A DNA stretch of 64,000 nt from Coprothermobacter platensis DSM 11748 (lineage in GTDB: Bacteria > Coprothermobacterota > Coprothermobacteria > Coprothermobacterales > Coprothermobacteraceae): assembly GCF_000378005.1 (NCBI RefSeq), contig NZ_KB899040.1, forward strand, positions 189,468 through 253,467, written 5' to 3'. Position 1 is the stretch's first letter; each line of letters begins with the position of its first letter. Below the pieces are notes generated by a model. It had not been told where the DNA came from. It made no database searches and was given only the letters and a program-made list of their open reading frames with translations. The position numbers were made by a program, and so were the translations under genes. Below, in pieces: positions 2,802-42,759 of the stretch.

Positions 2802-3529
2802 GTTACTGGCCCGTTTTTTTTCGGTTATTGGGTTTTATCGTAGCTACTCCTATTTTGCCCTCAAGGTTCTTTAATATGAGGACCAAAATAACATTTGTAT
2901 CTGTAATGGCACTTGTGGCTATTCCAGACTTTATGTCTGTGTTTGCTATTCAGACATCGGTAGGTTGGGTCGAAATCTATGTTAGCGAACTCTGCTTGGG
3001 TTTAGTTCTTGGTGTCTTTAGTGGGATTGTTTATTGGGCATTGGTGTTCGCTGGTGATTTATGGGATATCATGTCAGGCTTTCAGATGATGACTGCCATA
3101 GATCCTTTTACTTCCGTACCTCAGCCTGTCATGACACAACTTTTCTCGTTAATGGCTGCTGCAACCTTTGTGATCACCGGTGTATTAGATAACTTTATCG
3201 TAGACATCATTATGAGTTACAAATTAGTTCCCGCTGGTAGCTTTCTACATTTGGCTCTGTCGGAACCTGTTTTATTCTTGACCAGGGCTTTTGCCTTGGG
3301 TTTAGCTGTATCAATTCCTATCATTGTTGTAATCTTGATATTGCAGTTTATAATGGGTGTAGTGTCAAAAGGTGCTTCTGGTTTTCCGATTTTTGTTGTT
3401 TGGGTTCCGTTGCAAACTGCTGTAGCACTTGTTTTGCTTTTTGTGATGCTTCCAGCTATACGCTTGTTCATGCACAATTGGACTAACTGGGCAGTGCAGT
3501 ATTTTACGTCATTACTGACCGCGGGGTAG
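2783..3529 (+). CDS. fliR: Flagellar export apparatus protein FliR
   Basis: 248-aa polytopic membrane protein in the fliPQR position. Its start overlaps the fliQ end. Confidence 0.85.
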   Translation: MANNTLGYWPVFFRLLGFIVATPILPSRFFNMRTKITFVSVMALVAIPDFMSVFAIQTSVGWVEIYVSELCLGLVLGVFSGIVYWALVFAGDLWDIMSGFQMMTAIDPFTSVPQPVMTQLFSLMAAATFVITGVLDNFIVDIIMSYKLVPAGSFLHLALSEPVLFLTRAFALGLAVSIPIIVVILILQFIMGVVSKGASGFPIFVVWVPLQTAVALVLLFVMLPAIRLFMHNWTNWAVQYFTSLLTAG

Positions 3530-16758: not shown

Positions 16759-17499
16759 ATGAGCGGAGGAAAAGGAGGCTTTGAATTGATCGAAGTTCAG
16801 AATCTTCAAAAACATTTCGGGAATGTTGAGGCGTTAAAAGGCGTATCTTTTAATTGCAAAAGTGGTCAGGTTACAGGACTTTTGGGTCCTAATGGCGCTG
16901 GCAAGACGACTACTATAAGGATTCTTAGTACAATTCTCAAACCTATAAGTGGGAGCGCCAAGGTGAACGGTTTTGACGTAGTGAAAGATGCTTCCAAAGT
17001 ACGTTCTTCTCTTGGAGTGGTATTAGAGAACACGGGTTTATACCGTAGGCTCACTGGCGACGAAAACGTGCTCTATTTTGCAGACCTCGCTGGCGTGTCA
17101 AGACCGGAAGCGTACAAGAGAATGGAAGTGCTTTATAAATTGCTGGAAATTGATTACGGAAAAAGGCAAGCAGGGACTTATTCAAAAGGCATGGCTCAAA
17201 AGCTCAATTTGGTGCGTGCAGTTATTCATGATCCTCCTGTTCTCATATTAGATGAGCCTACTGCGGGCCTTGATGTTCCCAGCACATTGGCTGTCCGCAC
17301 ATTTGTGAAACAACAAAGGGACAGTGGTAAAACAGTTCTCTTTAGTACGCATTTGATGAATGAAGCGGAGCTTTTATGCGACTATGTTTACATCATTAAT
17401 CTTGGCTCCATCGTGGCAGAAGGAAGCCCAGAAGAGCTAAAGCAACGTACGCAAAGCAATTCGCTGGAAGAGGCATTCATGAAGGTGGTGAAGCAATGA
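16759..17499 (+). CDS. ABC-2 type transporter ATP-binding protein (NatA-like)
   Basis: Walker A LGPNGAGKTTTIRIL, Q-loop, signature YSKGMAQKL, Walker B LILDEPTAGLD. Confidence 0.85.
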   Translation: MSGGKGGFELIEVQNLQKHFGNVEALKGVSFNCKSGQVTGLLGPNGAGKTTTIRILSTILKPISGSAKVNGFDVVKDASKVRSSLGVVLENTGLYRRLTGDENVLYFADLAGVSRPEAYKRMEVLYKLLEIDYGKRQAGTYSKGMAQKLNLVRAVIHDPPVLILDEPTAGLDVPSTLAVRTFVKQQRDSGKTVLFSTHLMNEAELLCDYVYIINLGSIVAEGSPEELKQRTQSNSLEEAFMKVVKQ

Positions 17500-18674
17500 A
17501 ATCCATTTTTGCTGTAATGAGGAAGGAAATAAAAGAAGCTTTCAGAGATCGCCGAACACTTATCATGAGTGTATTGTTACCAGCGGTACTTGTGCCTGCT
17601 ATCGTGCTTGGAATATTCTATTTCGAAGGGCAATCGGTAAAGCAAGAGACAAAAAGTGGCTACACGGTAGCGTTTCAAGGTAGTGAAGAACTCCGTTCTT
17701 TCCTTGCCAATGCAAACTTAAAAGTGATCGATTCCAAAGACGTTAGCGACATGGTTCTGCAAAAGAAGGCTGACGTAGGTGTAGTTGAAGAACAAACAAG
17801 CTCTCATTCTCAGATTACAGTGGTTACATCCTTCGCTTCTGGAAGCAAAGGAGAAAACGCTGCAAGTTATGTTAATGGCATTCTACCGAGCTATCGTGAG
17901 CTTCGAATAAAGCAGTATCTTGCCACTAAAGGCATAAAAGATGATGTGTTTTCTTTAGTTGTCGTTCAAAGCAAGCAAGTAGGAGAACCCAATGCGTTCT
18001 TAAAGTTCATGTTAGCTTATATTGTATCTTTAGTCATGCTGAGCAGTGGTTTTGTAGGTAATGTTTATCTTGGCACAGATATCGGGGCCGGTGAAAAGGA
18101 AAGAGGAACACTTGAAAGTTTATTAGCTACGCCTGTTTCACGTTTTCACATTGCTATGGGTAAGTGGCTTGCTTTAGCTGTTTTGAACAGCATAGGTACA
18201 TTGATAACTCTACTGTCGTTTACCTTTTCCTATACTTATGCATTGACGAATTTTGACTTGGGTTTAGGTGTGACTGCTGGTACGTCTGCCCTAAGCATCT
18301 GGGGGTCAGGCATATGGGCAATGGTTATAGGAGCCATATTACTTTCTTTAACAGGTGCCGCTTTGCAATTCATTATTTCTATTTACAGCAGGAATATGCG
18401 AGAAGCACAACTGTATCTGGGACAAATGGGTATGGTCATATTGCCTTTCATATTCGTTCTTATTCCTTCTCTTACTAATGCCACAGCAATGCCTACGTGG
18501 TTATATTTCGTCCCCATCGTTAATGCTTCGGCTGTTACATATAATGTCATTATTGGGAACGTCGTTTGGCCGCTTATAGGTATGGCGTTCTTGATAGATG
18601 TTGTGGTTGCTATAATTTTGGCGTTAGTCGTTAGCAAATTTATGAACAAAGAAAGCGTAATCTTGAGAATTTAA
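17496..18674 (+). CDS. ABC-2 family transporter permease (NatB-like)
   Basis: 392 aa with N-terminal TM helix, a large extracytoplasmic loop and about five C-terminal TM helices. Overlaps the preceding ATPase gene by 4 nt. Confidence 0.7.
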   Translation: MKSIFAVMRKEIKEAFRDRRTLIMSVLLPAVLVPAIVLGIFYFEGQSVKQETKSGYTVAFQGSEELRSFLANANLKVIDSKDVSDMVLQKKADVGVVEEQTSSHSQITVVTSFASGSKGENAASYVNGILPSYRELRIKQYLATKGIKDDVFSLVVVQSKQVGEPNAFLKFMLAYIVSLVMLSSGFVGNVYLGTDIGAGEKERGTLESLLATPVSRFHIAMGKWLALAVLNSIGTLITLLSFTFSYTYALTNFDLGLGVTAGTSALSIWGSGIWAMVIGAILLSLTGAALQFIISIYSRNMREAQLYLGQMGMVILPFIFVLIPSLTNATAMPTWLYFVPIVNASAVTYNVIIGNVVWPLIGMAFLIDVVVAIILALVVSKFMNKESVILRI

Positions 18675-18690
18675 TTCATCATGTTATAAT
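18663..18690 (+). promoter_or_regulatory. Sigma-70-type promoter with extended -10 (TTGAGA, 16 nt spacer, TGtTATAAT)
   Basis: TTGAGA at 18663-18668, TG at 18682-18683, TATAAT at 18685-18690. Predicted transcription start about 18697-18699, at the 5' strand of the leader's closing helix. Confidence 0.45.
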
Positions 18691-18697
18691 TAGGTTA

Positions 18698-18852
18698 GCC
18701 TGCCGTGTGCGTAAATAGGGGCAGAAGTGCATCCAACAAGTGCGTCTTGGGAGCTCGAATTCCATCTCCCTTCCAGGAGGTGGAAGGGAAGCGCCCACCT
18801 GTGTGACAGGGACGCAGCTTTCTGGCCCTGTACGGCACGGCGGGTTTGTTTT
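18698..18852 (+). ncRNA. GC-rich structured 5' leader RNA of unknown class (candidate riboswitch or regulatory leader)
   Basis: About 60% GC against a roughly 42% GC background. A 10-bp closing helix pairs 18698-18707 with 18836-18845 and is followed by UUGUUUU. Four internal helices are nested inside. See findings for detail. Confidence 0.4.
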
Positions 18853-18869
18853 AAGAGGGGAGGCATGTC

Positions 18870-19238
18870 ATGACAAACTGGCAGGTGTTTTTCATCGCTT
18901 TTCCACTTTGGGTGTTTGCTGTAGGCATCATAGTATTCATGGTGCTAATATTAAGAGCTATTCAGAAGTATGGTGGCGAAATAAAAGATGCAGTGGGCGA
19001 TTTACAGCAGGATGTTAAAAAGATCACTAATAGCGCTGCAACGGAAGTACCTGAAATTCTCAGGAATGTTACGGAAACTACAGACCAACTAAAAAACATG
19101 ACTGGTGATTTGAAGCAGTTGACTGCTGTTTTGCCCTATGTGGTAAAGCCCAATTGGACAAATGTAGTCCTAAGAACGCTTCCTTCGGTTATATCTCTTG
19201 TGAGTAGGAATAAAGGCAAGGGAAAACAGGTAAAATAA
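18870..19238 (+). CDS. DUF948-like membrane protein (N-terminal TM helix plus coiled coil)
   Basis: 122 aa. TM helix WQVFFIAFPLWVFAVGIIVFMVLIL, then heptad-like EIKDAVGDLQQDVKKITNSAATEVPEILRNVTETTDQLKNMTGDLKQL. SD GAGGGGAGG lies 6 nt upstream. Confidence 0.5.
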   Translation: MTNWQVFFIAFPLWVFAVGIIVFMVLILRAIQKYGGEIKDAVGDLQQDVKKITNSAATEVPEILRNVTETTDQLKNMTGDLKQLTAVLPYVVKPNWTNVVLRTLPSVISLVSRNKGKGKQVK

Positions 19239-19259
19239 TGGAAAAGGGGGTGTCAAATA

Positions 19260-19487
19260 ATGTTGTTAAAAGGTAGTAATGAAGAAGGCGCCGTTTTAAG
19301 AAAGGGCGCGGCAGTTGGAATCGGTTCCTTCCTTGGTGGTATGCTCCTCGGTGGATTGATTGGAGCCTTGGTAGGCGGTACGTTGGTACATATTGCTCAT
19401 TTCAAGATGGAAAATGGATGCCCTTGGTGCGACGAAGACATGGAAGAGTCGTGTGAATGTGAAGAAGACGAAGAAGAGGAAAAATAG
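19260..19487 (+). CDS. Small glycine-zipper membrane protein with Cys-rich acidic C-terminal tail
   Basis: 75 aa. GxxxG zipper GIGSFLGGMLLGGLIGALVGG, then CPWCDEDMEESCECEEDEEEEK. SD AAGGGGG lies 8 nt upstream of the ATG. Confidence 0.45.
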   Translation: MLLKGSNEEGAVLRKGAAVGIGSFLGGMLLGGLIGALVGGTLVHIAHFKMENGCPWCDEDMEESCECEEDEEEEK

Positions 19488-19542
19488 CGTGAAGAGTAAC
19501 CATGTTTCTACCAAGAAGAAAGAACGAAAAGGAGGGAAAATT

Positions 19543-19812
19543 ATGGATGATATGCGTGATGTAATCAGAGTAGCAAGTGTGTTCGCGGCTGGCATTCTTA
19601 TAGGTGCCACCTGCGGTTTATTGATGGCGCCTATGTCCGGTGCAGAAATGCGTGGAGTAGTAAAGGAAAAAACATCTGATTTAAGAAAGAAAACTTTAGA
19701 GAAAGCTCAGGAGTTAAAGGATAAAGCTGCTGAGCTTACAAAAAAAGCCGAAGACATGATTAGTGAAGAAGCAATAGAAATTGAAGAAGATATGGAAGAT
19801 GAATCTAAATAA
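19543..19812 (+). CDS. YtxH-like (DUF948 family) stress protein
   Basis: VASVFAAGILIGATCGLLMAPMSGAEMRGVVKEKTSDLRKK followed by a charged coiled coil. ATG at 19543 follows AGGAGG. The track ORF start at 19393 is spurious because it overlaps the previous gene out of frame. Confidence 0.55.
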   Translation: MDDMRDVIRVASVFAAGILIGATCGLLMAPMSGAEMRGVVKEKTSDLRKKTLEKAQELKDKAAELTKKAEDMISEEAIEIEEDMEDESK

Positions 19813-19837
19813 TAAGAAACTTCCAGTAAGGGTTTAA

Positions 19838-19871
19838 AGAGAGGCGCCACCTCAATTGGTGGCGCCTCTCT
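19838..19871. terminator. Bidirectional intrinsic terminator between the ytxH-like gene (+) and dnaJ (-)
   Basis: Perfect 14-bp stem AGAGAGGCGCCACC / GGTGGCGCCTCTCT with loop TCAATT; T/A-rich flanks on both sides. Confidence 0.6.
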
Positions 19872-20984
19872 TTAATTAAAAAAGCCAAATTTCTTTTTGT
19901 TATTATCGTTTTCGTGTAACTTCTTTATTTCTTCCAAATACTTTCGCTCCTGTGGTGTAAGCTTGGACGGCATGTCCACTTTTATCGTTACATGCAAGTC
20001 GCCTCTATAACGACCATTCTTATCTGGTACCCCTTCATTTGCCAGTATGTACTCCTGATCTGGTTGAGTACCTGCCTCAAGTAATAGTTCTTTCTCTTCA
20101 CCAGTAGCGGTATTTACTTTTACTTTGCCGCCTAAAATGGCATGATAATAAGGCACATGCACTTCCGTATACAGATGTGTTCCTTTCCTGCGCCAGCCTT
20201 GAGGAATAAGTACTTTAATAGTCACATTTATGTCGCCGCTTACGCCATCTTTTACAGCATTCCCTTGCCCTTTGAGTGTGATTACGTCGTTGTTGTCCAC
20301 ACCTGGGGGAATTTGCAGACCAAGTGTTCGTTGTTTTCTTACAACGCCCGCACCACGGCAGGTGGGACATGTTTCTTCAGGAACTTTTCCCGTACCATGG
20401 CAAACAGGACATTCGGTTTGGCTCACGAACACCCCGAAGGGTGTCGTTTGCCTATTTTCTATAACTCCCGTGCCGTGACATCGGTCACAAGTTTTGACTC
20501 GTCCGTCTTTTGCTCCCGTTCCATGGCAATCTTCACACAATTCGGCTCTTGAAAATTGCAAGGACTTCGTAGTTCCTGTGATCACATCTTTTAGGGAAAG
20601 AGTTACTTCTAAGTTGATATCAGAACCTTTGGGTTTTGCTTGAGTTGCTGTATTCCTATTGAATATAGTGGAGCCGAATGGAAAATCGGTGAAGAAATCA
20701 CGGAAGATAGAGTCAAAGAAATCGAATCCTTGTCCAGGCCTGTAATAATCAGAACCAGAGCCGAAATTCACTCCGCCTTTTCTCATGGCGTCGTACTCTG
20801 CACGTTTTTTCGGGTCTGTGAGTACCTGATATGCTTCGTTGATTTCAGCCATACGCTTTGCTGCTTCTTCGTCACCCTTGTTCAAATCAGGGTGAAACTG
20901 TTTTACGAGTTCTCTATATTTTCTCTTTATATCATCAACCGAAGCATCCTCTGGCACGCCAAGAATTTCGTAATAATCCTTCAT
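19872..20984 (-). CDS. dnaJ: Molecular chaperone DnaJ
   Basis: J domain YYEILGV...HPD. Four CxxCxGxG zinc-finger repeats (CEDCHGTG, CDRCHGTG, CPVCHGTG, CPTCRGAG). C-terminal substrate-binding domain. Confidence 0.95.
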   Translation of the reverse strand: MKDYYEILGVPEDASVDDIKRKYRELVKQFHPDLNKGDEEAAKRMAEINEAYQVLTDPKKRAEYDAMRKGGVNFGSGSDYYRPGQGFDFFDSIFRDFFTDFPFGSTIFNRNTATQAKPKGSDINLEVTLSLKDVITGTTKSLQFSRAELCEDCHGTGAKDGRVKTCDRCHGTGVIENRQTTPFGVFVSQTECPVCHGTGKVPEETCPTCRGAGVVRKQRTLGLQIPPGVDNNDVITLKGQGNAVKDGVSGDINVTIKVLIPQGWRRKGTHLYTEVHVPYYHAILGGKVKVNTATGEEKELLLEAGTQPDQEYILANEGVPDKNGRYRGDLHVTIKVDMPSKLTPQERKYLEEIKKLHENDNNKKKFGFFN

Positions 20985-22807
20985 TAGTGGATATCTCCTT
21001 GAGGACCTTCTCCCTCTGTACCATCACCCGGGTTATTTGGACCAGGCTGTTGACCAGGGTTGCTCTGATATAAGTAAGAGCCTGCTTTTCCCATAGCAGT
21101 CAATACATCTTCCATTAATTGTTTTAGCTGATCCACAGGTTCATTATCGCGCAACGCTTTTTCCAAGTTATCTGTCTTTTCCGTTATCTCTTTTGTAATG
21201 TCCTCGGGGAGTTTCCCCTCATTCTCTTTTAAAAGTTTCCGTGCTTGAAAAACATAAGTGTCTGCTTGGTTGCGCGTTTCTATTTCGTCTTTTTTCTTCT
21301 TATCTTCCTCAGCATACATTTCTGCTTCTTTACGCATCCGTTCAATTTCATCTTCAGAAAGTCTTGTGCTGTTAGTAATTGTTATTTGTTGACTCTTCCC
21401 TGATGCCTTATCCTTTGCAGTGACGTTCAAAATACCGTTAGCATCGATGCTGAACGTTACTTCAATTTGTGGTATACCTCTAGGCGCTGGTGGTATGCCA
21501 TCTAGGACAAACTCTCCCAGGGACAGGTTGTCTTGAGCTAATGGCCTTTCACCTTGGAGTACATGTACCTGAACGCTGGTCTGGTAATCGGTTGCTGTAG
21601 TGAATATCTCAGATTTCGTCACCGGTACTGGTGTATTCCTTGGGATAAGAACGGTCATAATACCGCCTACTGTTTCTACACCGAGAGAAAGGGGCGTTAC
21701 ATCAACCAACACGATGTCTTTTACTGTGCCTTCGATGATGCCAGCCTGTATGGCAGCTCCCATTGCTACCGCTTCCATGGGGTCTATACCTCGTTCCACC
21801 GGTTTATTCATGAACTGCTCCACGAAATCTCTCACGATGGGCATTCTGGTAGGACCACCAATTAATATGATTTTGTCTATGTCATTGGGTGTGAGTTGCG
21901 CATCTTTTAACGCCTGCTCAATAGGAGTTGCTGTTTTCTCTACTATCGGCCTGACAAGCTGTTCCAGTTTTGCTCTGGTCACTTTCATCTGAAGGTGAAC
22001 AGGCTGTCCATCTTTCATGGCGATGAAGGGTAGGGAAATATCTGTTTCAAGAACAGAGGAAAGCTCGATTTTTGCTTTTTCTACAGCTTCATTCACCCTT
22101 ATCATTGCCATTCGATCGCTGCGTAAATCTATACCACTTTCTCTTTGGAATTCTTCCAAAACGTAATCCATAAGGACTTTATCCATATCACGACCACCAA
22201 GTTGAGTATCACCACTTGTGGAAACAACTTGGAACACGCCGTGTCCAAAATCCATTATGGTGACATCCAACGTACCGCCACCAAAATCGTAAACCATAAT
22301 TTTCATTTCTTGCTCAGCTTTATCAAGGCCGTATGCAAATGCTGCCGCTGTTGGTTCATTTATGAGCCTTACTACTTCCAGACCTGCTATAGCACCTGCA
22401 TCTTTGGTTGCTTGCCTCTGGGCATCGTTAAAATACGCTGGTACGGTAATTACCGCCTGACTCACTGGTTCACCAAGGAACGCTTCAGCATCTTTTTTGA
22501 TTTTTTGCAAAATAAACGCTGATATTTGTTCTGGTGTATATGTTTTTCCAAAACATTGTATCGTTTCTCGTGTTCCCATTTTTCTCTTTATACCAGTAAT
22601 AGTACCTTCTGGGTTCATAGCCGCTTGCCTTCGCGCGGGTTCGCCTACCAGTATTTGTCCGTCTTTGGTAAAAGCCACTACTGATGGCACTGTTTTGCCG
22701 TACATGGTAGTTCCTTCCGCAGATGGAATGATAGTAGGTTTTCCGCCCAGCATAACTGCGGCACATGAGTTCGATGTTCCCAAGTCTATACCTATGATCT
22801 TGGCCAT
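20984..22807 (-). CDS. dnaK: Molecular chaperone DnaK (Hsp70)
   Basis: [27 protein letters not shown] and the rest of the Hsp70 ATPase and substrate-binding domains. Stop overlaps the dnaJ ATG by 1 nt (TAATG). Confidence 0.95.
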
Positions 22808-24296: not shown

Positions 24297-25406
24297 TCAG
24301 AACAATATAAAGATGATGGGAAATATGCTTACTACAGTAACTGCCATAATGAGTTTGTTGTATAGGGCTCCTGCTTTTGCTTGGAAGTAGTCTCTGGACA
24401 GAATTAGACATAAATGTGTTGGACTTGCCATGACGCCTGCAAAAGCAAAAACAAATGCTAAATTCAGCATGGCTACGCGATTGGAAGGTGTGGTTAGCCC
24501 CATGAGTAGAGGCAAAGCTGTACCTACTCCAGCTTGAGTAAGACCAGTTATTAATGATATGGCAAAGGGGAGAACAATAAAGAATATTATGTTAGGAAGG
24601 TGCATGGCTGCCAAACTGGATGCAACTGCTTTATCTCCGCCTGTAGCAGTGAGGACGGCAGCGAAGAAATAGACAGCCGGAATAACTGCTAACATTTTCC
24701 ATTTTAATGCTTCCTTCGTAAGACTAATCATAGATGGTAGGTGCTTGTACTGACGCAGGTAAATGAACAGACATGCTAAAAGAATTGCTGTAGGAACGGT
24801 AAAATCAGATTTTATAAGAACCCCAGCGACGATTACAGCCAGTAATGGTCCCAAATCCAAAAGAATTTCTATCCAATTCGGTTTTTGAAATCTTATTGAT
24901 GGCATAGAAAAACCAAATACTAATAACCAGCCAATGACAATCATGATTATGGGTATATACCAATTCAGTTGCGCCATGGAGCCAGGGCTAATCCCTATTA
25001 GCATTGCTGCCATGAGTGTACCAGGGTAAACAGGCAGTATGGGTTCCCATATATGCCTGAACCAAAAGTTTATAAAGGCTTTTTCTTGATCTGGTACATT
25101 GGAATGAGCAAGAGTTTCTGCCACCAATGGTGCAGAAAAACGTGCGCCTCCCGGTGATGGCAATAGACCCATTACCGCAGGCATAACAGCGCTTGTTAAT
25201 CTATAATCTCCTAAAAGTTTTATGAAGTTTTGGGTGAGTCTTGTTAATGCACCACTTCTCCGCAAGAAGACTTCATATAGTGACATGAGATAGAGTGTGA
25301 GCAAGACGGCAATAGTTTTTTCTGCCAATAAACTTCCGAAGAATTGTTGCACAATTTGTGCAAAAGATAGGTGTCCCACAATTCCCAAAAAAACCGATGC
25401 AATCAA
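24297..25406 (-). CDS. DUF401-like polytopic membrane protein (putative permease); 5' end probably lies upstream at 25486 with a frameshift at a T6 run
   Basis: 369 aa with at least 10 TM helices and a TTG start in the track ORF. An in-frame-shifted 27-codon ORF sits just upstream, driven by a perfect leaderless promoter; see findings. Confidence 0.55.
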   Translation of the reverse strand: MIASVFLGIVGHLSFAQIVQQFFGSLLAEKTIAVLLTLYLMSLYEVFLRRSGALTRLTQNFIKLLGDYRLTSAVMPAVMGLLPSPGGARFSAPLVAETLAHSNVPDQEKAFINFWFRHIWEPILPVYPGTLMAAMLIGISPGSMAQLNWYIPIIMIVIGWLLVFGFSMPSIRFQKPNWIEILLDLGPLLAVIVAGVLIKSDFTVPTAILLACLFIYLRQYKHLPSMISLTKEALKWKMLAVIPAVYFFAAVLTATGGDKAVASSLAAMHLPNIIFFIVLPFAISLITGLTQAGVGTALPLLMGLTTPSNRVAMLNLAFVFAFAGVMASPTHLCLILSRDYFQAKAGALYNKLIMAVTVVSIFPIIFILF

Positions 25407-25492
25407 AAAAGCAGATACAAATCAAGTTTATCCAATAAAATTACGATGGCACCAAAAATGATCAGAAGCCACCATGTCAGATTCATCGTTCA

Positions 25493-39213: not shown

Positions 39214-40614
39214 TTGAGTATGGAAGATCTTATGCTAAATTGGAAAAACGGCCATTTAAGGGTCGATGAAACAACATCCCAGCAGATAGATGCATTTGCT
39301 AAGGATTACATGCGTTTCATGGTTGCGGCCAAGACGGAGCGGGAGAGTATAACGGAATCATTACGTATTGCGAAGGAAAATGGTTTTGTTGACATTGAAG
39401 AGATTAAAGAGTGGAAACCTGGGCAAAAAGTATACTACGTGAATCGTAAGAAGAGCGCAGTTTTTGCCATCCTTGGCCAGCGTCCTGCACTGGATGGCGT
39501 AAACATGGTAGCAGCTCACGCTGATGCTCCCAGGCTAGATCTTAAACCACGACCACTCAAGGAAGATGAGCAAATTGCAATATTGGAAACACATTATTAC
39601 GGTGGCATAAAGAATTTTCATTGGGTTTCTACGCCACTTAGTCTTCACGGTGTTGTGGTAAAAAGTGATGGAACCGTTGTGCAGGTCAGTATTGGAGAAA
39701 AAGACGATGATCCCGTGCTTGTCATACCGGACATTTTGCCGCATTTAGGCAGAAAGATTCAAATGTCCAAGACCATGGATGAAGCTATACCCGGTGAATC
39801 ACTGGATGTTGTCATCGGTTCCTTACCTATGAAAGGTGAAGAAAAAGAACCAGTAAAGAAGTACATTCTGCAATTGCTAAACGACACTTATGGTATTACT
39901 GAAGCAGATCTGCTATCGGCAGAGCTGGAGGTTGTCCCTGCATTGAAGCCTAAGGAAGTCGGTTTAGATAGGGCCCTTATTGGCGCTTATGCTCAGGATG
40001 ATCGTGTTTGTGGTTACACAGCATTCCGCGCATTACTGGATATGACCTTTGTTCCAGAGAAGACTGCCATGGTCATTTTTGCTGACAAAGAAGAAGTAGG
40101 TTCCATGGGCAATACCGGTATGCAATCTGCATTTATCGATAATTTCTTCTCGAAACTCATCGCTTTGAGCAAACCATCATTTACTCCCTTGGACCTTTTT
40201 GAAGCATGGAATAAAACCAAGGTCCTGTCTGCCGATGTCACCGCGGCCGTCGATCCTATTTGGAAGAGTGTTCATGAAATGCAAAATGCGGCGCGCGTCC
40301 ACTATGGCCCTGTTTTGACTAAGTACACTGGCAGTAGGGGTAAAGGTGGCGCGAATGACGCTCATGCGGAGTTCCTTGCTCAGGTGCGTGATGCCTTCGA
40401 CAAAGAAAATGTCGTTTGGCAGATGGCTGAACTCGGAAAAGTAGATGAGGGCGGCGGCGGAACGGTAGCGTTGTTTATGGCTAATAGGGGTGCAGATGTC
40501 GTGGATATAGGTGTAGCTCTATGGGGCATGCATTCTCCATTTGAGATATCCAGCAAATTGGATGTTTACTATGCTTATAAGGCTGACGAAGCATTCTTCA
40601 AGCATGTGAAATAA
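39214..40614 (+). CDS. M18-family aminopeptidase (aspartyl aminopeptidase-like)
   Basis: 466 aa with AAHADAPRLDLKPRP, AYAQDDRVCGYTAFRALLD, and the C-terminal GGGGTVALFMANRGADVVDIGVALWGMHSPFE. Confidence 0.65.
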   Translation: MSMEDLMLNWKNGHLRVDETTSQQIDAFAKDYMRFMVAAKTERESITESLRIAKENGFVDIEEIKEWKPGQKVYYVNRKKSAVFAILGQRPALDGVNMVAAHADAPRLDLKPRPLKEDEQIAILETHYYGGIKNFHWVSTPLSLHGVVVKSDGTVVQVSIGEKDDDPVLVIPDILPHLGRKIQMSKTMDEAIPGESLDVVIGSLPMKGEEKEPVKKYILQLLNDTYGITEADLLSAELEVVPALKPKEVGLDRALIGAYAQDDRVCGYTAFRALLDMTFVPEKTAMVIFADKEEVGSMGNTGMQSAFIDNFFSKLIALSKPSFTPLDLFEAWNKTKVLSADVTAAVDPIWKSVHEMQNAARVHYGPVLTKYTGSRGKGGANDAHAEFLAQVRDAFDKENVVWQMAELGKVDEGGGGTVALFMANRGADVVDIGVALWGMHSPFEISSKLDVYYAYKADEAFFKHVK

Positions 40615-40637
40615 TAACTTAAGAAACACATTCATAT

Positions 40638-40666
40638 AAAAAGCGCCCTTTTTTAGGGCGCTTTTT
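40638..40666. terminator. Bidirectional intrinsic terminator (aminopeptidase on +, marR on -)
   Basis: AAAAGCGCCC / GGGCGCTTTTT stem with loop TTTTTTA. Confidence 0.6.
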
Positions 40667-40668
40667 AT

Positions 40669-41103
40669 TTAAAAATCTATGGTTTCACGCAGTGTTTTAA
40701 CTGCGCTCGCTATATCTTTTTTTTGCCTTTCGTTGAACTTGCTTAAATAATCTTCTAAAGTGGCAAGGAAATGTTCTTTTACATCTTTTAGAGCTTTTTT
40801 GCCGGATTCGGTTATCTCTACCAGTACCAGCCTTCTGTCTCTATCTTCATCACGGAATCTGCGCACGAAACCTTTCTCAACTAATTTATCCATGTGAGGC
40901 GTAAGGCCACCCATTGTAACGACCAAAGCATCTGCTAATTCTGACATTTTACATGGGCCAATTTTTTGCAGTTCGTTCAAAATCTTTAGTTCACTCAGCC
41001 CCACTTGAAAATCTTGTTCCTGTGAGCATGCGTAAAAAAGTTTTTTGAACCGCCTCGGCAGTTGCATATAAAGATCAAACAAATTCTCAGCTAATTGCTC
41101 CAT
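40669..41103 (-). CDS. MarR-family transcriptional regulator
   Basis: 144 aa with winged helix LSELKILNELQKIGPCKMSELADALVVTMGGLTPHMDKLVEKGFVRRFRDEDRDRRLVLVEITESGK. Confidence 0.85.
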   Translation of the reverse strand: MEQLAENLFDLYMQLPRRFKKLFYACSQEQDFQVGLSELKILNELQKIGPCKMSELADALVVTMGGLTPHMDKLVEKGFVRRFRDEDRDRRLVLVEITESGKKALKDVKEHFLATLEDYLSKFNERQKKDIASAVKTLRETIDF

Positions 41104-41141
41104 ATACCTTAATTATATGCCCTTTCCAGTAATTATATTTT

Positions 41142-41678
41142 TTAAAGGACTATGACTCCTTCATCGAAACACTTTCTTGCAGGTGCAGGTGGAACTTCCA
41201 AAGGATAGCCCATGGCAACAACTACCACAGGCAAGAAACGTTTATCTATTCTTAAAGCATGTCTTACTTGTTCCTCATCAAAATTACCAACCCAGCAGGT
41301 GCCTATACCTTCTTGCCATGCTGCTAAGATGATATTCTCCATAGCTGCACTGACATCACAGATACCGTAAAGTGTTGTTCCTCTCTTCCCATAATAGCTT
41401 CTCATACTTTCTACATCAGTGCACCCAACGAGTACCAAAGGAGCCTGAGCTACATGGTCCTGACCAAAGCATGCATCGGATAGGTCTCGTTTCATCTGCT
41501 CCTTTGTAACCACAAATATGGTCCGCGCTTGCAAGTTTCCTGCAGATGGGGCCCATAAACCTGCTTCCAAAATACGCTTGATTACACTTTCATCGATAGG
41601 ATCCGGTTTGAAATTTCTTATACTTCGTCGCTGTTTGATTAGTTCATATATGTCATCCATATAAATGAATTTTAGCAC
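41142..41678 (-). CDS. Nitroreductase-family FMN oxidoreductase
   Basis: IKQRRSIRNFKPDPIDESVIKRILEAGLWAPSAGNLQ and the rest of the nitroreductase fold. Confidence 0.85.
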   Translation of the reverse strand: MLKFIYMDDIYELIKQRRSIRNFKPDPIDESVIKRILEAGLWAPSAGNLQARTIFVVTKEQMKRDLSDACFGQDHVAQAPLVLVGCTDVESMRSYYGKRGTTLYGICDVSAAMENIILAAWQEGIGTCWVGNFDEEQVRHALRIDKRFLPVVVVAMGYPLEVPPAPARKCFDEGVIVL

Positions 41679-41730
41679 GATCCGTGCATGTATAGTAAAT
41701 TCATTCTGTGGTTATTAAATTGTACAGGAG

Positions 41731-42078
41731 GTGAGTTTTGTGGAAAAGAAAAAAGTTTTGTTCATCATTTCATCAGGAGACAAGCAGGTCATTCTGCCAG
41801 CGCTTAACCTGGCTATGAATTCAAAAAAAGGTGGATTATATGATGATGTAAAAGTACACTTCTTTGGTATAAGTGAAAAAGTTGCGGCTGAAGATGAAGA
41901 AATTCAACAGAAAATCGCAGATCTTATAAAAGAGGGTATCAACCCCATGGCTTGTGTAAATCTCAGTAAGAAGTTTGATGTTTCTGTAAAATTGGATAGC
42001 ATGGGTTTCGATCAAGTTCCTATCGGGCCTGAAATAGCTAAGTTAATCAATGATGGTTATGTCCCCATGGTCTTTTAA
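41731..42078 (+). CDS. DsrE/DsrF-like family small protein (tentative)
   Basis: 115 aa with alpha/beta pattern KKVLFIISSGDKQVILPALNLAM...VHFFGISEKV...GINPMACVNLSKKF, reminiscent of DsrE/TusD-like sulfur-relay or peroxiredoxin-like small proteins. Confidence 0.4.
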   Translation: MSFVEKKKVLFIISSGDKQVILPALNLAMNSKKGGLYDDVKVHFFGISEKVAAEDEEIQQKIADLIKEGINPMACVNLSKKFDVSVKLDSMGFDQVPIGPEIAKLINDGYVPMVF

Positions 42079-42102
42079 GTAAAAGGGCAGGTATTAACAC
42101 GC

Positions 42103-42759
42103 ATGATTGATATTGACGAGCTGGAGCAATTAGTTAAAACGCGCAGATCTATAAGGCAGTGGCAAGAAAAGGATGTGCCAGAGGAAGTGTTGAAGAAGGC
42201 ACTGGAAATTGCCGTCAACGCTCCCAGTGGCATGAATTACCAAGGCTGGAAATTCATTGTTGTGAAGAACAAAGAGAAAATTGAAGAGATCGCGGATAGT
42301 GTTAAGAATAGAATTAGGATGTTTGCGCAATGGCCTGAAGCAGCTAAATACATAGATGACCCAGAAAAGATGGTTGAAAATGCAGGCTTTTTTAAAAAAG
42401 CCCCCGTACTCATCGCTGTATATTCGCAGATATATCCTTCTGGCCGCGATGGTGTCTATCTGGAGCGTATGAGCCATGATGAAGAAGCGAAAAAGATGAA
42501 ATCATGGTTAGATTTAGCTAACCCAAGGATTCAATCGGCTGCTTCAGCTATCGCTTATCTATTGTTAGGTTTGCATGCTCAGGGGCTAGGCAGTGTTTGG
42601 ATGACTGGCCCTATGCAGGCGAAGGGCGACATAGAACACATTTTGGGTGAATTTGAAGGTTATGATTTGGTTGCCCTTATAGCCACAGGTTATCCAGCAG
42701 AAACGCCTAAAGAAAAGAAGATGAGGCCCTTTGATGAACTGGTTCAGTTTGTTGAATAA
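42103..42759 (+). CDS. Nitroreductase-family FMN oxidoreductase (second paralog)
   Basis: VKTRRSIRQWQEKDVPEEVLKKALEIAVNAPSGMNYQGWKFIVV and the rest of the nitroreductase fold. Confidence 0.85.
   Translation: MIDIDELEQLVKTRRSIRQWQEKDVPEEVLKKALEIAVNAPSGMNYQGWKFIVVKNKEKIEEIADSVKNRIRMFAQWPEAAKYIDDPEKMVENAGFFKKAPVLIAVYSQIYPSGRDGVYLERMSHDEEAKKMKSWLDLANPRIQSAASAIAYLLLGLHAQGLGSVWMTGPMQAKGDIEHILGEFEGYDLVALIATGYPAETPKEKKMRPFDELVQFVE

Follow-up and report, generated by a model that had tools for sequence, protein, structure and literature searches.

A stretch of 64,000 nucleotides (nt) from Coprothermobacter platensis DSM 11748 (contig NZ_KB899040.1, positions 189,468 to 253,467 of the forward strand; hereafter, the window) contains, at positions 18694-18852 of its plus strand, a GC-rich structured RNA that is very probably a 6S RNA (ssrS), and thus a member of an already known RNA family. 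6S RNA is a well-known small RNA that binds RNA polymerase and holds it back. Family membership is documented here by a covariance model, by conservation, by synteny and by covariation within the stems. The initial annotation of this DNA had described a structured non-coding RNA on the plus strand, directly upstream of genes for DUF948, glycine-zipper and YtxH-like proteins, and our analysis bears out that description. It had also failed to place the RNA in any known class. This second point does not stand, because the Rfam scan, a check that the annotation itself had called for, returns 6S/SsrS both here and in the orthologous loci.

Evidence for a 6S RNA

All 64 kb were scanned against Rfam 15. 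The only match, whether the cut-off was the gathering threshold or E <= 0.05, was to RF00013 (6S/SsrS RNA; gathering score, 46.4 bits). It spans 18694-18850 on the plus strand, scores 54.1 bits (E = 5.5e-8) and covers the full model (positions 1-187). No second 6S copy or other RNA element was found in the window at E <= 0.05, and the remaining local matches at E <= 10 were chance-level hits to small nucleolar RNA, microRNA and small RNA (sRNA) models. As a positive control, the ssrS gene of Escherichia coli K-12, fetched with its annotation, scored 139.8 bits with the same tool. The reverse strand of the element retains the helices and gives no 6S match even at E <= 10, which indicates that the score does not come from rod shape alone. 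The RF00013 alignment matches the closing stem, the GGGAGC motif on the 5' side of the terminal arm and the 3'-bubble segment CCCACCUG...CAGG. These last two motifs fall on upper-case consensus positions with high posterior probability and are invariant in all homologues.

Homologous loci were recovered through alignment of the proteins encoded by the DUF948 genes: four loci from representative genomes, five from metagenomes and eight through exact-protein look-ups. This yielded 17 loci (L001-L014 and L016-L018), the window itself not being counted. Each of them has an RF00013 match that immediately precedes the DUF948 gene and shares its orientation. The match exceeds the gathering threshold in 14 loci, at 47.4-52 bits, and the other three (L003, L016 and L017) represent one divergent lineage with an identical RNA scoring 34.7 bits.

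The plus strand from 18694 to 18852 folds with a minimum free energy (MFE) of -81.2 kcal/mol, as compared with -56.1 +/- 4.2 kcal/mol for dinucleotide shuffles (z = -5.95; none of 200 was as good). An RNA from the reverse strand was rejected as a candidate, with a weaker fold (-65.4 kcal/mol, z = -4.2) and no Rfam match. We aligned 12 sequences, nine of them distinct, with a mean column identity of 90%, and the fold that RNAalifold derives from this alignment is the same as the single-sequence MFE fold. It has 56 pairs, for which 99% of 501 cells hold standard pairs, and pairing falls to 40-51% when the 3' partners are slid by 1-3 columns. In nine pairs both partners have changed; shuffled data give 2.7 such pairs on average, and none of 500 shuffles reaches nine. 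Of these compensatory pairs, the terminal hairpin accounts for six and the closing/internal stem for two, and the ninth is in the arm beside the bubble. Conservation and covarying pairs, which the initial annotation had proposed to look for, are both present in the orthologous regions, and the rod architecture of a long closing/internal stem and a terminal stem-loop is maintained in evolution.

The 5' strand of the closing/internal stem (18697-18730, plus strand) pairs in segments with 18817-18846. The segments are 18697-18708/18835-18846, 18710-18712/18832-18834, 18715-18720/18826-18831, 18722-18727/18819-18824 and 18729-18730/18817-18818. Together they comprise 28 pairs; 99.2% of cells are paired, and in two pairs (columns 5:154 and 32:130) both partners have changed. 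The closing helix first proposed (18698-18707/18836-18845, 10 bp with two G-U pairs) is exact, and helices 2, 3 and 5 of the same proposal are likewise exact Watson-Crick helices at the coordinates then given. The terminal arm (18748-18797, plus strand) begins with UGGG/CCCA (18748-18751/18794-18797), continues with GCU/AGC (18753-18755/18790-18792) and ends in a hairpin (18760-18769/18776-18785) with its loop at 18770-18775. Variation is concentrated in this hairpin, where each lineage has its own sequence and length, and six of its ten pairs have changed on both sides across lineages. The register kept in the homologues and in the MFE fold pairs UUCCAUCUCC (18760-18769) with GGAGGUGGAA (18776-18785), with a local energy of -16.2 kcal/mol versus -13.7 kcal/mol for the pairing of UCCCUUCC with GGAAGGGA. 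The latter had been presented as helix 4. Its complementarity exists, at 18767-18774/18782-18789 and hence beginning at 18767 instead of 18766, but this register is absent from the MFE fold, is not kept in the homologues and is locally weaker, and it was replaced by the other register.

Several observations weigh against the identification as 6S RNA. The RF00013 score is merely 7.7 bits over the gathering threshold, one related lineage scores below that threshold, and our literature search found no paper on 6S RNA in Coprothermobacter. The homologues are close to one another (90% mean column identity, nine distinct sequences), and the covariation comes mostly from the terminal hairpin. The central region is nearly invariant among them and carries no covariation signal for an open or a collapsed form; because of this invariance, covariation cannot choose between the two. 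Finally, the open bubble is not the predicted ground state, the collapsed form being favoured by 5.6 kcal/mol at 37 °C and by 2.2 kcal/mol at 65 °C.

The modest score (54.1 versus 46.4 bits, and 34.7 bits in the L003/L016 lineage) and the partly closed bubble of the predicted ground state would also fit a lineage-specific, rod-shaped, GC-rich sRNA that merely resembles 6S RNA and has another function, such as a base-pairing sRNA or an element of mRNA processing or stability. We regard this explanation as improbable. The reverse complement keeps the helices without any 6S match, so that the score is not just due to rod shape; the sequence-specific motifs flanking the bubble align to the consensus; and the arrangement of alternative helices agrees with the published refolding scheme of Bacillus subtilis 6S-1 RNA (PMC8876501). 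Moreover, the 64 kb hold no other 6S candidate.

Even less credit, in our view, is due to a riboswitch-like cis-acting leader, in which a ligand or stress would toggle the pyrimidine strand UCUCCCUUCC between an internal hairpin and the Shine-Dalgarno (SD) sequence and thereby control translation. Riboswitches and SD-sequestering leaders resemble the present RNA in their 5' position in an operon, their GC-rich structure and their U-rich tail. The RNA does lie immediately 5' of the operon, with no promoter in between, and in the window a duplex of about 9 bp is available between the pyrimidine strand and the SD sequence GAGGGGAGG. However, the element matches 6S RNA, a trans-acting family, over its full length; no riboswitch or leader family is found in the window at E <= 0.05, and the RNA lacks a conserved expression platform. 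We computed the best duplex between the 20 nt before the start codon and the RNA body for 11 loci, with 200 shuffles each. The duplex of the window reaches -14.7 kcal/mol versus -15.0 +/- 2.3 kcal/mol for shuffled bodies, and across the 11 loci the values (-10.6 to -14.9 kcal/mol) equal or are weaker than the shuffled means (-14.1 to -17.0 kcal/mol). The position of the SD partner varies among loci (body positions 21, 66, 78, 81, 107, 128, 136 and 137). In addition, the pyrimidine strand and the AGGAGGU loop belong to the hypervariable terminal hairpin and are absent from other lineages, and a fold extended through the start codon leaves the SD sequence unpaired with the 6S body. The anti-SD translational switch of the initial annotation was therefore rejected: the pairing is available in this window, but it is no better than chance and its partner site is not conserved. 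What survives of the leader idea is a weak architectural sense, in that the downstream genes may well share the 6S promoter through read-through.

A small protein-coding gene has a negligible probability. Mechanical open reading frames (ORFs) of 48, 58 and 92 amino acids (aa) overlap the interval, but these frames are not kept in the homologues: each of the six frames is interrupted by stops in L010, L011 and L014, and length varies from 154 to 161 nt through indels not divisible by three. Variable sites are not biased towards third positions, and compensatory base-pair changes are present. The coding potential of these ORFs was rejected.

Central bubble and proposed mode of action

The 5' strand of the central bubble (AUCCAACAAGUGCGUCU, 18731-18747, plus strand) includes C18737. 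Alignment to the Rfam model forces an open bubble of the E. coli type, in which the 5' strand lies at about 18735-18747 and the 3' strand at 18798-18810; at its promoter-distal end it is closed by GCAUCC/GGACGC, which contains one mismatch. In the MFE ground state, the plus-strand segments 18741-18746 and 18811-18816 form the exact Watson-Crick helix UGCGUC/GACGCA, and the 3' strand of the bubble folds into the hairpin CCUGU-GUG-ACAGG (18798-18810, plus strand), which aligns to the conserved Rfam consensus CCCACCUggaAcagCaGG. The UGCGUC/GACGCA helix competes with a helix at 18728-18734/18810-18816 that we equate with helix P2. A central bubble collapse helix (CBCH) has been defined previously (PMC8876501), and in both B. 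subtilis 6S-1 and Aquifex aeolicus 6S RNA a short 3'-bubble hairpin exists already in the free RNA (PMC8876501). Since the ground-state arrangement is that of the published scheme for these two RNAs, helices 5 and 2 of the initial annotation correspond, by analogy, to the 3'-bubble hairpin of 6S-1 (18798-18810) and to the collapse helix (UGCGUC/GACGCA), respectively. Release of E. coli 6S RNA involves an extended 9-bp 3'-bubble hairpin and not a collapse helix (PMC8876501).

When UGCGUC was forced to remain unpaired, the open form reached -75.6 kcal/mol; at 55 °C it lies 3.6 kcal/mol above the MFE. Blocking 18722-18737, as a bound product RNA (pRNA) would, led to a fold that keeps and extends the collapse helix. 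The UGCGUC/GACGCA pairing is invariant in the homologues save for one U-A to U-G change. Unlike the collapse helix of 6S-1, which contains weak G-U and A-U pairs, the one described here is made of six perfect Watson-Crick pairs, and the prediction gives it greater stability than the open form even without pRNA. As this energy difference falls from 5.6 kcal/mol at 37 °C to 2.2 kcal/mol at 65 °C, the unusually stable helix may mean that the open, polymerase-binding form is favoured only near the high temperature at which the organism grows.

With both RNAs aligned to RF00013, U44 of E. coli 6S RNA, the established pRNA start, is model position 45 and falls on C18737 of the window. The pRNA is predicted, purely from this alignment, to start opposite C18737 as 5'-GUUGGAUGCACUUCUG. 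It would begin with G, as does the pRNA of B. subtilis 6S-1, which starts at C40 (PMC8876501). B. subtilis 6S-1 RNA (bsrA) and A. aeolicus 6S RNA also share with the present RNA a rod with a central bubble and the small hairpin in the 3' bubble strand (18798-18810 here). The RNA of C. platensis differs from them in being shorter (about 155 nt) and in its genomic context.

Polymerase binding, pRNA synthesis and the refolding pathway are proposed here on the model of those 6S RNAs that have been characterised. Transcription from an extended -10 housekeeping promoter of its own would yield an RNA of about 155 nt, which would fold into a 6S-type rod composed of a long closing/internal stem, a central part able to open and a terminal stem-loop. 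In its open form, it would mimic an open promoter and fill the active site of the RNA polymerase holoenzyme containing the housekeeping sigma factor. Occupation of the holoenzyme would then damp transcription when nutrients are scarce. Once nucleoside triphosphates return, the polymerase would copy the 5' bubble strand into a short pRNA starting opposite C18737 (5'-GUUGGAUGC...), and this synthesis would unzip the helix equated with P2. The freed 3' strand, GACGCA, would pair with UGCGUC to form the collapse helix beside the pre-formed 3'-bubble hairpin, and the RNA would be released.

Putative promoter, predicted transcript ends and downstream genes

The ORF of the ABC-2 permease ends with the TAA codon at 18672-18674, in agreement with the stop assigned at first, and the next ORF begins with the ATG at 18870. 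GC content is 0.593 for 18700-18849 and about 0.38-0.42 in the flanks; the interval 18675-18869 in its entirety has 0.54, and the window 0.423. Hence, the earlier figure of about 60% GC is accurate for the RNA body and a little too high for the full interval. Structured RNAs are usually GC-rich in thermophiles with AT-rich genomes, and the high GC content of the RNA body fits this tendency.

A promoter-like site at 18663-18690 (plus strand) consists of TTGAGA (18663-18668), a 16-nt spacer and the extended -10 element TGtTATAAT (18682-18690). It matches 11 of 12 consensus positions in addition to the TG, as expected of the near-consensus sigma-70 promoter reported in the initial annotation, and it is the top plus-strand site within 18300-19300. 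All 11 loci compared have TGnTATAAT and a TTG-type -35 at an equal distance. We infer that this site is the conserved promoter of the 6S RNA gene. Its -35 falls in the final codons of the ABC-2 permease gene, and no terminator-like site was found between the permease gene and the 6S gene; transcription of the transporter operon could therefore also enter the 6S gene.

The predicted transcript is likely about 155 nt long. Promoter spacing places its start at 18697/18698, 7-8 nt past the -10 element, which accords with the 5' end near 18698 suggested before, and a U-rich tail (18846-18852), in which the transcript would end, comes directly after the long closing helix. This predicted length and the conserved TGnTATAAT promoter agree with the norm for 6S RNAs, which measure roughly 150-200 nt and are made as discrete RNAs from a housekeeping promoter. 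The tail (UUUGUUUU, plus strand, including the last base of the stem) lies directly 3' of the closing stem and is probably a weak or leaky terminator, or else the mature 3' end. In the homologues the tails are U-rich yet variable (UCUCUUUA, UUUCUUUG, UCACUUUA, CUUUUUUG and UUUUUUAC). The sole local terminator-like hairpin is weak, with five pairs, and would compete with the closing stem.

The SD sequence (18855-18863, plus strand) precedes a DUF948-like gene (18870-19238, 122 aa), the first of the trio. Its product has a weak DUF948 match, and the closest named relatives are in Coprothermobacter proteolyticus (66% identity) and in metagenome-assembled genomes (MAGs) of Coprothermobacteraceae. 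The second gene (19260-19487, plus strand) encodes a small glycine-zipper-like protein of 75 aa, and the third, on the same strand, a YtxH-like protein that ends at 19812 and has its probable start at ATG 19543, after AAGGAGGG. The mechanical YtxH-like ORF of 139 aa (19393-19812) is probably over-long, as homologues are called at 84-92 aa; in its longer form it runs over the end of the glycine-rich ORF of 75 aa.

In the public gene calls, the starts of two DUF948 homologues, P0010 (141 aa) and P0007 (159 aa), fall within the 6S gene. The conserved DUF948 start is a TTG or ATG before ACnAAyTGGCA (TNWQ), about 20 nt past the RNA, and so these two ORFs are over-extended into the non-coding RNA. 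The calls concerned are L016:3001-3426, where the 6S match is at 2896-3047, and L013:176-655, where it is at 180-333. JGI also labels several of these small proteins as 'methyl-accepting chemotaxis protein', a name that looks spurious.

The closing stem and the DUF948 start codon are separated by 22-26 nt in all of the 11 loci measured, and the SD sequence fills most of this gap. No promoter-like site for the DUF948 gene was found on the plus strand between 18690 and 18870. Given the short gap and the lack of an intervening promoter, the simplest inference is that the trio is co-transcribed with the 6S RNA. E. coli ssrS offers a parallel, with the protein-coding gene fau (ygfA) directly downstream on the same strand, although the downstream genes are unrelated and the gap is 75 nt there versus about 20 nt here. 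In E. coli, ssrS and fau are co-transcribed. By analogy with fau, we give an even chance to the possibility that the trio has no promoter of its own and is expressed from the 6S promoter by read-through past the weak U-tract.

Conserved context and related systems

The 6S RNA lies in a conserved order of genes: an ABC ATPase, the ABC-2 permease, 6S RNA, DUF948, the small glycine-rich protein and YtxH, with dnaJ-dnaK convergent on the opposite strand. In the window, this segment extends over 16759-22807, with a transporter on one side of the RNA and clustered genes for stress proteins and chaperones on the other, an order conserved across the contigs of the phylum. The order 6S/DUF948/glycine-zipper/YtxH also occurs in L010, L011, L012, L013 and L016. 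All proteins found with a profile built from the DUF948 alignment were from Coprothermobacterota, and the linkage between 6S and DUF948 is described here for this phylum. A literature search found no paper combining 6S RNA with YtxH.

The divergent lineage of Coprothermobacteraceae consists of the MAG Ch108 and two Logan contigs, with the 6S RNA at L003:2833-2984 and at 2896-3047 in both L016 and L017. Its RNA carries compensatory changes from A-U to G-C (columns 32:130) and from U-A to C-G (columns 62:99). Annotation based on thresholds would miss this RNA, which is recoverable only by synteny.

Compared with E. coli ssrS, the RNA of C. platensis belongs to the same Rfam family and has the same plan of closing stem, bubble and terminal stem, and the conserved CCCACCU..GG segment of the 3' bubble strand aligns between the two. 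The E. coli RNA is longer (183 nt versus about 155 nt) and scores higher (139.8 versus 54.1 bits). The 6S RNAs of lactic acid bacteria resemble the present case in their strong family-level synteny, their TATAAT promoter and the presence of a stress-protein neighbour, uspA (PMC8414754). In those bacteria, however, the RNA is flanked by rarA and uspA, is mostly monocistronic and has a predicted terminator (PMC8414754), whereas here the flanking genes are the ABC-2 permease and DUF948/YtxH and the U-tract is weak.

Apart from 6S, the whole 64 kb contain no RNA that Rfam recognises, and genes for tRNA or tmRNA are likewise absent. The only tandem repeat is A-rich (25386-25425; 18-nt unit, 2.2 copies, 81% matches) and lies at the 5' end of a minus-strand ORF (24297-25406). 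The stretch at 40614-42103 has no ORF of at least 180 aa.

The results of our study indicate that an apparent orphan riboswitch is a standard 6S RNA, which any Rfam-based annotation would label as such, and not a new class of regulatory RNA. Their value is a minor one: they document a 6S RNA and its conserved context in Coprothermobacterota, a little-studied thermophilic phylum. Based on the distance of 22-26 nt between stem and start codon in every locus measured, and on the lack of an intervening promoter, we tentatively suggest, though we think it rather doubtful, that the 6S RNA of this phylum is the obligatory 5' part of the sole transcript able to express the membrane-stress trio. If so, a polymerase-sequestering RNA and stress proteins would be produced from one promoter, and the ratio between them would be set by termination or processing at the weak U-tract.

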